From NCBI RefSeq assembly GCF_050920415.1, contig NZ_CP169309.1: a stretch of 64,000 bases of DNA. One strand, given 5' to 3'. Source of the stretch: Escherichia coli (lineage in GTDB: Bacteria; Pseudomonadota; Gammaproteobacteria; Enterobacterales; Enterobacteriaceae). Positions 34,614-37,600 of this stretch are shown piece after piece (position 1 is the stretch's first letter; the number at the start of each line of letters is the position of its first letter). The position numbers are program-made.

Positions 34614-37600
34614 TACAAAGTATTGTGAATTCAAAAAATTGCGATTCCCTTGTAGGCCTGATAAGCGTAGCGCATCAGGCACTTGTGCCCCGAACGTTGA
34701 ATGAATTGTGGTTCTTATGTCCGAAACAAAAAACGAACTTGAAGACCTGCTGGAAAAAGCAGCAACTGAACCGGCGCACCGTCCGGCCTTTTTCCGTACT
34801 CTACTGGGATCCACCGTCTGGGTGCCTGGTACGGCGGCGCAGGGCGAGGCTGTGGTTGAAGATAGCGCGCTTGATTTACAGCACTGGGAAAAAGAAGACG
34901 GCACCAGCGTCATTCCTTTTTTCACCTCGTTAGAAGCACTTCAACAGGCGGTTGAAGACGAACAGGCATTTGTCGTAATGCCCGTTCGCACATTGTTTGA
35001 GATGACCCTTGGCGAAACGCTCTTCCTTAATGCCAAACTGCCAACCGGTAAAGAATTTATGCCGCGTGAAATCAGTTTGCTGATTGGTGAAGAAGGGAAT
35101 CCGCTGAGCAGTCAGGAAGTACTGGAAGGCGGTGAATCGCTGATATTATCGGAGGTTGCAGAGCCGCCAGCGCAAATGATTGATTCACTTACCACCTTAT
35201 TTAAAACCATTAAGCCGGTGAAGCGTGCTTTTATTTGTTCAATTAAAGAGAACGAAGAGGCACAGCCTAATTTACTTATTGGCATTGAAGCCGATGGTGA
35301 TATCGAAGAAATTATTCAGGCGGCGGGAAGTGTAGCGACCGATACATTACCTGGCGATGAACCCATCGATATTTGTCAGGTGAAAAAAGGGGAAAAAGGA
35401 ATTAGCCACTTTATTACCGAACATATTGCGCCATTCTATGAACGTCGCTGGGGGGGATTCCTGCGTGATTTTAAACAGAATCGAATAATTTAAAATATGC
35501 CGCCCCAAAGGGCGGCATTCGGGCTTACTTGCTGTTCTGAAGGTTGTTAACCATCAGTAAATTGTTGCCGGAGGGACTCCGGTTATTATTTACCTCGGTT
35601 AACAGCGCACCAGAAACAATAAGTACGATACAGAAGTACCGTATCTTCATTGTGCGGTCCATGCGAAGACCGCATCACGACAGCACCACTGGCGATATTG
35701 CCGCGATAGCAAGCGCTGTGGGGTGCCTGCATTTACGGTCATGGAACATCCTTTCCTAAAGCCAGCGCCCGTTTGCGAGACGGCGAAAAGGGCCGTCACG
35801 AATAATACCCTCATATTTGAATAATTACTCTATTTATTATCTTGACTTAGCCAGGCATAAAAGAGAGTATTTCAACACTGTGGGGTGCCTGCGTTGCTCC
35901 GGCAACACAAGTCAACCTGCTGGAAAGGCCGCGAACCAGACCAGCAATAAAAAACCGCCAAATTCGGCGGTTTTTTATTGCCTGTAAAAAGCTTATTTCT
36001 CTGGCTCAACCGGTAAATCGGCCCGTGCGCCCCATTCACTCCATGCGCCGTCGTACAGTTTCACGTTTGGCACATCCAGCGTCGCGAGTGCTAACAAAAC
36101 CACGGCTGCCGTTACACCAGAACCGCAACTGACGATAATTGGTTTGTCGTAGCTGACACCGCGACCAAAAAATATCGCATCCAGTTCATCGGTCGTTTTT
36201 AGTTCGCCTTCACGTACCAGTTCTGTCCACGGAACGTTCAACGCGCCGGGAATGTGCCCGCGACGTAAACCTGGGCGAGGTTCATCAACTTCTGCATTAA
36301 AACGTGCAGCCGGGCGGGCATCAATAATTTGCGCCGTATTTTCATGGCTTGCCAATAACACATCGGTTACTTTCACCACAGCCTCAGGATTAAACGCAGC
36401 GTTAAACTCACCTTCTCGCAGCGCTACTGCACCTTCTTCTAATAACAGATCATCACGCTGCCAACCTGCAAGTCCACCACCCAGAATCGACACTTTCTCT
36501 ACACCAAAGGTGCGCAGCATCCACCATGCGCGTGGGGCTGAGAAAAGATTACCTTCGTCATAGACAATCAGGTGCTTATCCTGGTTAACGCCTAACTCAC
36601 GCATTGCAACGGCGAACGTTTCCGGGCGCGGCAGCATGTGCGGAAGCGGGGAATTGTGATCAGAAAGCGCTTCGATATCGAAAAACACTGCGCCGGGAAT
36701 ATGTCCATTCAGATACTCCTGGGCAACGTTACGATCTTCCTGTCCAGGCGGTGCCATGCGGGCATCGATAATCTGAATTTCCGGGTCATCAATATGTTCG
36801 GCGAGCCAGTCGGCTCCTACAAACCATGTCGTGGACATAGGCATCTCCATTTTTGCCGGGTTAGGCTAAATTGTCGGATGTTTAGTGAAAAGCGACAAGC
36901 AAAAGAGGCTAATTTGGCTGTCTGAGCCACAATTCTCACTAAAATTCGGATTCCATGGGCACGATACTGAATTACATAACGTAAATTCTCACGCATAATA
37001 ATTATTCGACGTTGCTAACGGGCCATTGTGGCAGGGATGAAAAATGAAAAAGTTACGCGTAGCCGCCTGCATGCTAATGCTGGCGCTGGCAGGGTGCGAC
37101 AACAACGATAACGCGCCAACAGCGGTGAAAAAAGATGCACCTTCTGAAGTTACTAAAGCGGCATCTTCAAAAAACGCGAGTTCAGCAAAACTCTCTGCAC
37201 CGGAGAGACAAAAACTGGCACAACAGAGTGCCGGTAAGGCGCTGACATTGCTGGATCTCTCTGAAGTCCAACTCGATGGCGCAGCCACGCTGGTGCTGAC
37301 CTTCTCTATCCCTCTCGACCCGGATCAGGATTTCTCGCGCGTTATTCACGTCGTCGATAAAAAAAGCGGCAAAGTGGATGGGGCCTGGGAGCTGTCAGAT
37401 AATCTTAAAGAGCTGCGTTTATGCCACCTCGAGCCGAAACGTGATTTGATCGTTACTATTGGCAAGGAGGTCAAGGCACTCAACAACGCAACCTTCAGTA
37501 AAGATTACGAAAAAACTATAACTACCCGCGATATCCAGCCCAGCGTCGGTTTTGCCAGCCGTGGTTCGCTGCTGCCTGGAAAAGTCATTGAAGGGCTGCC

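Follow-up and report, generated by a model that had tools for sequence, protein, structure and literature searches.

We describe here the spacer between sseB and sseA in a 64,000-nucleotide (nt) stretch of Escherichia coli contig NZ_CP169309.1 (RefSeq assembly GCF_050920415.1), which is called the window below and in which all positions are counted. The spacer is bounded by convergent genes, with sseB on the plus strand ending at 35493 and the stop codon of sseA on the minus strand at 35993, and the gene order given by the open reading frames (ORFs) of the window and the RefSeq annotation is pepB-sseB-timP-(timR)-sseA-yfhM. The minus-strand unit in this spacer matches the Rfam family RF00126 (ryfA) at 35492..35796 over the full length of the model (positions 1-296 of 296; 312.6 bits against a gathering score of 80; E=1.9e-87), and a divergent plus-strand unit specifies the small RNA (sRNA) TimR. 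A preliminary description, made by a reader from the sequence alone, had proposed a divergent pair of the ryfA/TimP-TimR kind at this position, and in doing so it located a real type I toxin-antitoxin pair; the identification as ryfA/timP with a divergent TimR between sseB and sseA rests on the RF00126 match, the RefSeq timP annotation, the NCBIfam toxic_TimP family and two published studies (PMC7667032, PMC5333039). We conclude with high confidence that the spacer carries the timPR type I toxin-antitoxin locus of enterobacteria, as its "CACCC / ryfA1-like" allele. The locus itself was already known, as ryfA from 2001, as RyfA/RyfB from 2017 and as timP/TimR from work of 2020, 2024 and 2026. 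Its transcription units are made up as follows.

35525..35650, minus strand: timP coding sequence, 41 amino acids (aa), MKIRYFCIVLIVSGALLTEVNNNRSPSGNNLLMVNNLQNSK, from RefSeq and NCBIfam.
35490..35794, minus strand: timP mRNA (formerly sRNA ryfA), about 305 nt from the inferred start to the terminator U-tail, from RF00126.
35802..35807, minus strand: putative timP -10 box TATTAT, read from the sequence, 7 nt before the inferred start.
35497..35518, minus strand: intrinsic terminator of timP, directly after the sseB stop codon, a 9-bp stem with 7 G-C pairs, from terminator scan and fold.
35842..35870, plus strand: timR promoter TTGACT-N17-GAGTAT (TTGACT 35842-35847, GAGTAT 35865-35870), read from the sequence.
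35877..35982, plus strand: TimR antitoxin sRNA (RyfB/STnc2070 homolog), about 105 nt, with its seed at 35878-35895.
35944-35981, plus strand: TimR terminator hairpin, 16 bp, with an A-run on one side and a U-run on the other.

The identity of both genes is established in silico for the window. RefSeq annotates the timP coding sequence in E. coli records that are 100% identical here, and it maps to window positions 35525-35650 on the minus strand. The 41-aa product scores 83.1 bits against NCBIfam NF040796 (toxic_TimP; cutoff 45) over residues 1-39, and its best 13-residue hydropathy window reaches 2.62 at residues 6-18. A TimP-like protein of 35-41 aa is encoded by all 21 of the intact homologs collected below, and a hydrophobic N-terminus is common to the 20 loci other than that of the window. 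In Salmonella the ryfA RNA is an mRNA, and the product of its ORF from +145 to +261 is a toxic protein of the inner membrane (Andresen et al. 2020, PMC7667032); mutation of the TimP AUG at +145 alone abolishes toxicity (PMC7667032), and Salmonella timP also kills E. coli (PMC13000454). A 45-aa form of TimP, as predicted in a paper on uropathogenic E. coli (UPEC), would begin at the in-frame AUG at 35662 inside stem-loop 4 (MDRTMKIRY..., 35525-35662, minus strand). We rejected it because the NCBIfam match starts at its residue 5 and because the Salmonella start-codon mutant affects the downstream AUG.

The minus-strand unit of about 305 nt, closed by a terminator hairpin at 35518..35497, is found as the preliminary description had drawn it, and its RNA has a folding z-score of -5.25. 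Salmonella numbering was mapped onto it such that position n corresponds to window coordinate 35795-n. In this register the TimP AUG at +145 falls on 35650, the AUG of an upstream ORF (uORF) at +53 falls on 35742, C57-C58-G59 lie in ACCGU at 35738-35736, and the G125-C138 pair falls in stem-loop 4. Since these four Salmonella landmarks agree in register (PMC7667032, PMC11228461, PMC13000454), the timP start is placed near 35794, which gives a structured 5' untranslated region (5'UTR) of 144 nt. The TATTAT of the putative -10 box is kept in the K-12, O157 and K56 alleles.

On the other strand, the TTGACT-N17-GAGTAT promoter, together with the unit of about 105 nt that follows it and ends in a 16-bp hairpin and U-run, likewise stands as first described. 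Both promoter hexamers are kept in all E. coli alleles examined and in both of the timR units of K-12. A generic promoter scan reported neither the timP nor the timR promoter; the latter went uncalled because GAGTAT fits the -10 consensus at only 3/6 positions. The TimR terminator was also missed by a generic terminator scan, probably because an A/U-rich extension of its stem uses up the U-tail. This hairpin lies 12 nt from the stop codon of convergent sseA (35993), and it probably serves the sseA transcript too. TimR RNA has a folding z-score of -4.2, and in the centroid structure the ~22 nt at its 5' end form no pairs. An Rfam search over TimR returned no family at threshold, and its matches to AgrB, rimP, RNAI and IS128 (20-31 bits, all below gathering) were set aside as terminator look-alikes. 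TimR/RyfB transcripts have been detected in Salmonella, Shigella dysenteriae, UPEC CFT073 and avian pathogenic E. coli (APEC) CH138 (PMC7667032, PMC5333039, PMC13188913). The timR start (35877, plus strand) lies 83 nt beyond the timP start site (35794, minus strand), so that TimR does not overlap the toxin locus.

What joins the two RNAs is a repeated sequence. As reported in the preliminary description, CTGTGGGGTGCCTGC occurs exactly twice in the 64 kb, both times on the plus strand (35716-35730 and 35878-35892); no other copy with one mismatch or fewer is present, the chance expectation is 0.01, and at least two matches arose in 0/100 shuffles. The two copies are separate DNA segments 162 nt apart, the first inside the timP 5'UTR and the second at the 5' end of TimR. 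The complementarity between the RNAs that had been deduced from this repeat is real, and it extends over 18 bp rather than the 15 first given: the predicted duplex of 35878-35895 with 35733-35716 has 17 Watson-Crick pairs and one G·U pair, with an energy of -36.1 kcal/mol. We assessed the duplex by in-register counting and by duplex energies of short segments; RNAduplex run on the full-length RNAs gave a meaningless 90-nt "duplex", which was discarded because it ignores intramolecular structure. In the leader, the target lies among the following elements, all on the minus strand.

35751..35790, minus strand: stem-loop 1 (SL1), from the Rfam consensus structure; its 3' strand, 35750-35757, is AGGAAAGG.
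35761..35767, minus strand: pseudoknot site 1, CGCUGGC, in upper SL1, with partner GCCAGUG at 35687-35693.
35735..35740, minus strand: site 2, GACCGU, read from the sequence, complementary to the SL4 5' strand GCGGUC.
35716..35733, minus strand: predicted TimR-binding site AAUGCAGGCACCCCACAG, comprising the SL2 5' strand and loop and including the CACCC "variable region".
35710..35729, minus strand: SL2, from the Rfam structure and the minimum-free-energy fold.
35674..35707, minus strand: SL3, with pseudoknot site 3 (GCCAGUG) at 35687-35693, from the Rfam structure, the fold and homologs.
35654..35673, minus strand: SL4, predicted from the Rfam structure and fold to sequester the TimP Shine-Dalgarno sequence (SD; GGA at about 35658-35660).

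SL2, SL3, SL4 and the terminator all appear when the 305-nt RNA is folded to its minimum free energy. In Salmonella, SL1 to SL4 have been defined and a 7-bp SL1-SL3 pseudoknot has been found essential for timP translation and destabilised by TimR (PMC11228461), and a paper of 2026 in Nucleic Acids Research added an interaction between site 2 and site 4 that opens SL4 (Eleftheraki et al. 2026, PMC13000454). Loss-of-function mutations cluster at C57-G59, the Salmonella counterpart of site 2, and a compensatory test has been done there (PMC13000454). The Salmonella TimR 5' end pairs with an 18-nt stretch of the 5'UTR, as demonstrated with compensatory mutants and in vitro translation (PMC7667032), and the TimR site has been placed in SL2 (Eleftheraki and Holmqvist 2024, PMC11228461). 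The divergent arrangement is kept in homologs from other enterobacteria (PMC7667032).

Comparison across genera shows that the intermolecular helix keeps its place while both of its strands change in sequence. A pattern scan (SL4 followed by ATG) of species-representative genomes gave 23 loci; no Salmonella locus was returned by it. One locus, in a Selenomonas metagenome-assembled genome (L016), was dropped as a chance match, and three collapsed loci (L019, L025, L026) were excluded from the covariation analysis. The 21 intact homologs comprise scan loci, four E. coli alleles and the window itself, and they represent Escherichia, Citrobacter, Superficieibacter, Yersinia, Rahnella, Erwinia and Pantoea; covariation was counted on a gap-free alignment, A1. 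All 21 can form a helix of 10-22 bp between the 5'UTR at -83 to -62 from the TimP AUG and the 5' end of the divergent unit, whose partner sequence lies 146-162 nt upstream in homologs and 481 nt upstream in K-12. The paired sequences vary from genus to genus, and their position is fixed. The intermolecular helix is paired in 90.9% of cells and 11/22 of its pairs are changed on both sides, with 69 compensatory cells against 17.2 in shuffles (0/500 shuffles reach the observed value), although the registers were chosen by maximising pairing and these figures are thus somewhat favoured by construction; registers slid out of place pair in 27-44% only. The duplex and its covariation are thereby established in silico for the window. 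The same holds for the presence and covariation of the pseudoknot, since its 7/7 pairs form in 21/21 homologs (100% of cells), and three of them carry compensatory changes. The SL1 lower stem is paired in 96.8% of cells, SL2 in 96.6% and the whole SL1 to SL4 intramolecular model in 96.9%, and the CCGT of site 2 is invariant in A1. SL4 was itself the search pattern, and therefore its invariance is favoured by construction and uninformative.

By homology with Salmonella, these elements suggest how the window allele may work. TimP made in quantity would insert into the inner membrane and render it leaky. Translation of timP would need the SL1-SL3 pseudoknot (35767-35761 with 35693-35687) and also the interaction of site 2 (35740-35735) with SL4, which would free the sequestered SD. 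The unprocessed mRNA would switch between conformers, the active one having both the pseudoknot and the site 2-SL4 pairing. The unpaired 5' end of TimR would form the 18-bp duplex with the SL2 5' strand and loop (35733-35716), bind the active conformer, and destabilise SL2 and the pseudoknot, so that initiation would be blocked with no contact between TimR and the ribosome-binding site or the coding sequence. TimR binding at SL2 of the Salmonella RNA does inhibit translation by destabilising the SL1-SL3 pseudoknot (PMC11228461), and the relevant experiments in Salmonella and Shigella include structure probing, the pseudoknot mutants M2/M2', the compensatory mutant M6, the site 2-4 tests and allele-specific repression by RyfB1 (PMC7667032, PMC11228461, PMC13000454, PMC5333039). 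Toxicity, membrane targeting and pseudoknot disruption are thus expected in the window by analogy with those experiments.

Several observations, besides the two limits on the covariation counts given above, weigh against reading the locus in this way. The evidence for the strain of the window is in silico only, and the experiments cited concern other strains; moreover, the correspondence with Salmonella rests on the four agreeing numbering landmarks. The APEC paper is explicit that toxicity of native E. coli TimP has not been demonstrated (PMC13188913), and no protein product of Shigella ryfA1 was detected by Fris et al. (PMC5333039). UPEC ryfA alleles with a disrupted TimP ORF still complement phenotypes (PMC8205139), and APEC ryfA mutants are attenuated, with minimal effects of timR loss (PMC13188913). 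These last findings bear on the alternative that survives best, namely that the E. coli RNA of about 300 nt is chiefly regulatory (RyfA, acting on stress, fimbrial and virulence genes), that TimR/RyfB is its antagonist, and that the TimP frame is incidental or secondary. This alternative is also favoured by the removal of ompC mRNA upon RyfA1 overproduction in S. dysenteriae and by the lowering of RyfA1 by RyfB1 (PMC5333039). We regard it as possible, though distinctly less probable than a toxin mRNA. As a protein, TimP is kept in genera from Escherichia to Yersinia, Rahnella and Pantoea, where its start, stop and hydrophobic N-terminus are intact, and it matches a curated protein family well above the cutoff; in addition, a covarying structure for translation control (pseudoknot, SL4 sequestration) would make no sense if translation did not matter. 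One RNA could fill both roles. Because the TimP-disrupted UPEC alleles still complement (PMC8205139), the RNA has functions beyond encoding TimP, and the TimP-independent RyfA phenotypes in UPEC and APEC therefore make a dual-function RNA a live, non-exclusive alternative.

The remaining alternatives turn on two small frames that precede timP in its leader.

35647..35742, minus strand: second uORF, 31 codons, MTVNAGTPQRLLSRQYRQWCCRDAVFAWTAQ, with its AUG at +53 and a UGA that overlaps the TimP start (AUGA).
35675..35749, minus strand: 24-codon ORF of the preliminary description, with its AUG at about +46, which is -99 from the TimP AUG.

The 31-codon uORF has its AUG 6 nt downstream of AAGGA and runs across the TimR site. 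By position it corresponds to an 8-codon uORF of Salmonella, and in most homologs it is absent or shorter. Its geometry recalls mok/hok, and one may imagine that it feeds ribosomes to timP and that TimR acts by blocking the uORF. This arrangement is present in the window, O157, SCPM, E1V33, Superficieibacter and one Citrobacter allele. However, K-12 (GTG), K56 (GCG) and most Yersinia, Rahnella and Erwinia homologs lack the uORF AUG, other homologs have a frame of only 8-25 codons, and the SD of the uORF is part of the SL1 stem. In Salmonella, replacing AUG by AAG in the counterpart (AUG +53, stop +77), which also lies over the TimR site, leaves timP translation unaffected (PMC11228461). When the literature was searched for ribosome profiling that would show translation of an ORF in E. 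coli ryfA, only the Salmonella work came up. We consider such coupling improbable. The broader proposal that, in the CACCC class, some upstream ORF over the TimR site is translated and contributes to TimP expression or TimR control seems to us equally hard to credit; the better candidate of the two upstream ORFs for it is the 31-codon frame, with its AUGA on the TimP start.

Still less likely is the gene model of the preliminary description, in which the 24-codon ORF is the membrane toxin and TimR pairs with its codons 7-12. The frame exists as described (MFHDRKCRHPTALAIAAISPVVLS): it contains the first copy of the repeat, and its AUG, which precedes the Salmonella-type uORF AUG by 7 nt and lies in another frame, follows the purine-rich AGGAAAGG. 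The frame is open over 24 codons in 19/21 homologs, and we found no published mutation of the +46 AUG itself. However, the frame has no NCBIfam match, its ATG is present in 12/21 homologs and absent in 9/21 (among them all four intact Yersinia, Erwinia and the two intact Citrobacter homologs), and in the K56 allele and E. whittamii the frame is cut short after 5 codons. Column entropies at its three codon positions are 0.66/0.57/0.43; the third position varies least, the reverse of what is seen in coding sequence. Where the frame crosses the TimR site its residues are hypervariable, and all of its conserved stretches are RNA elements: site 2 falls on codons 4-5, the TimR site in SL2 on codons 6-12, and SL3 with site 3 on codons 15-24. 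The AGGAAAGG that had been taken for its Shine-Dalgarno sequence is the 3' strand of the SL1 stem, where it is paired and abuts the AUG. Its hydrophobic tail is a run of 9 residues with no strongly polar one, too short to span a membrane, and mutation of the Salmonella TimP AUG (+145) alone removes toxicity (PMC7667032). The 24-codon ORF is thus most likely an incidental open frame in a conserved structured leader and not a gene, and it illustrates that an open frame with a purine-rich stretch before it is, in such a leader, no evidence of a gene. The gene model is corrected accordingly: the toxin is the 41-aa ORF, and because this begins 99 nt further downstream, TimR pairs outside toxin coding sequence and not within toxin codons as had been proposed, its target being the 5'UTR stem-loop SL2, 66-83 nt upstream of the TimP AUG. 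Finally, the reading of the 15-nt repeat as chance or as a purely structural duplication with no RNA-RNA function, which has only its generality in its favour, is refuted for practical purposes by a chance expectation of 0.01 per window, by positionally fixed compensatory covariation in 21 homologs and by the compensatory mutants tested in vivo in Salmonella (PMC7667032).

The spacer is found in 5,425/5,426 complete E. coli genomes (megablast); in about 11% of them the locus is at least 95% identical to that of the window, and most are 80-90% identical. Among E. coli alleles the timP 5'UTR is near-identical outside the pairing patch, where these variable regions occur.

CACCC: the window allele (within 35716..35733, minus strand) and O157.
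TGTTT: K-12.
CGCGT: K56, A10 and E. whittamii.

The cognate TimR seeds vary together with these patches, and the window and K-12 differ by four compensatory pairs and one G·U; cognate duplexes have energies of -36 to -39 kcal/mol, and non-cognate ones of -13 to -26. Fris et al. (2017, PMC5333039) described divergent RyfB transcripts of about 100 nt and a 5-nt "variable region" of ryfA in the versions TGTTT, CGCGT, CCCCC and CACCC; RyfB complementarity overlaps this region, and RyfA1 is down-regulated by RyfB1 in an allele-specific manner (PMC5333039). The diversity of the locus in E. coli is this published RyfA1-like/RyfA2 variation. In a weaker form, the idea may be entertained that the poorly cross-reacting patches (CACCC, TGTTT, CGCGT and others), together with the orphan timR units described next, reflect selection within E. 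coli for orthogonal specificities of the antitoxin.

A number of genomes depart from one timP and one timR. K-12 MG1655 (~600-1120 of locus L002; compare window 35830-35992) has two timR-like units about 322 nt apart. The one adjacent to timP carries a CGCGT-type seed, CGCTGAGACGCGCTTGC, which is non-cognate to the TGTTT site of K-12 timP, and the cognate unit, CTGTGAAGCACCTGC, is the distal one, 481 nt away, with 20 bp including 3 G·U. The second K-12 unit also retains a timP promoter, with ~16 nt of the transcript start before the sequence passes into unrelated AT-rich DNA; it resembles what a tandem timPR duplication would leave behind. E. coli A10 (~2150-2260 of L005) has a further timR-like unit, an orphan, whose seed GACGAGATACACTTGC is of a third kind and whose TimR body and terminator are conserved; a matching timP is absent from the spacer. 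In E. coli P276M (L006) the timP frame is disrupted (the ORF reads MKIRCFCSHRPAST...) and unannotated, the adjoining sseB is a frameshifted pseudogene, and the spacer has a K-12-like double timR layout. The three collapsed loci, from Yersinia similis (L019), Citrobacter amalonaticus (L025) and Y. aleksiciae (L026), differ in the region -200 to -55 from the TimP ATG: a full TimR body and terminator on the opposite strand abut SL3, seed and target are the same DNA, and SL1 and both promoters are missing. A deletion between two direct repeats of the pairing sequence would produce such loci. The SL4 + ATG signature occurs on three contigs of a single Yersinia pekkanenii genome (L013, L014, L015), which suggests several timP copies there. 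Apart from timPR, a palindrome resembling repetitive extragenic palindromic (REP) elements lies between pepB and sseB at 34554-34613, with sub-threshold matches to Rfam naRNA4 on both strands (40.3 and 23.1 bits; gathering score 59.5).

The closest relative of the window locus is timP/TimR (STnc2070) of Salmonella enterica. The two have the same gene pair in the same divergent, non-overlapping layout, an 18-nt TimR duplex with SL2 at equal distance from the AUG, SL1-SL4 with the SL1-SL3 pseudoknot, site 2 (ACCGU) and an SD in SL4, and a TimP with a hydrophobic, signal-like N-terminus. They differ in the length of TimP (41 aa in the window, 38 aa in Salmonella, with divergent C-termini), in the pairing sequence and in the +53 uORF (31 codons against 8), and unlike the window, Salmonella has an extra gene, STM2534, between timP and sseA. 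The Salmonella system is backed by functional tests, whereas the window allele is known from sequence analysis. RyfA1-RyfB1 and RyfA2-RyfB2 of Shigella dysenteriae/E. coli (Fris et al. 2017) come from the same locus and species group as the window, which carries the published CACCC version of the variable region, and the allele-specific repression by RyfB1 seen by those authors agrees with the cross-allele duplex energies computed for the window alleles. The window has one timP and one timR, against two full copies in tandem in S. dysenteriae; Fris et al. treated RyfA as non-coding, whereas we read the ryfA of the window as timP mRNA.

Beyond this family, the design of timPR has well-known parallels. 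Like timPR, tisB/istR-1, zorO/orzO and shoB/ohsC each pair a small hydrophobic membrane toxin with a divergent, adjacent, non-overlapping antitoxin sRNA, have about 18-21 nt of complementarity in the 5'UTR of the toxin mRNA, well ahead of the ribosome-binding site, and keep that ribosome-binding site structurally sequestered. The tisB, zorO and shoB mRNAs become translatable, with a standby site exposed, only upon nucleolytic 5' processing. To our knowledge, there is no sequence homology between timPR and these systems. The hok/sok/mok system is like timPR in its small membrane toxin, antisense repression and sequestered ribosome-binding site and, for the window allele, in a uORF whose stop overlaps the toxin start. 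In hok/sok/mok, Sok is encoded in cis with an overlap of mok, and the system depends on coupling to mok. TimR, by contrast, is trans-encoded, and the uORF is unconserved among timP homologs and unneeded in Salmonella. The timP mRNA is unprocessed and undergoes a conformational switch through its pseudoknot (PMC11228461).

Since RefSeq annotates timP in essentially all complete E. coli genomes, the locus carries little weight as a discovery. Its interest for the timPR family lies in the covariation table, which is an independent in silico confirmation, across seven genera, of the published TimR-timP duplex and of the pseudoknot. If the uORF were translated in the allelic class of the window, this would add a mok/hok-like layer of coupling that the Salmonella system lacks.

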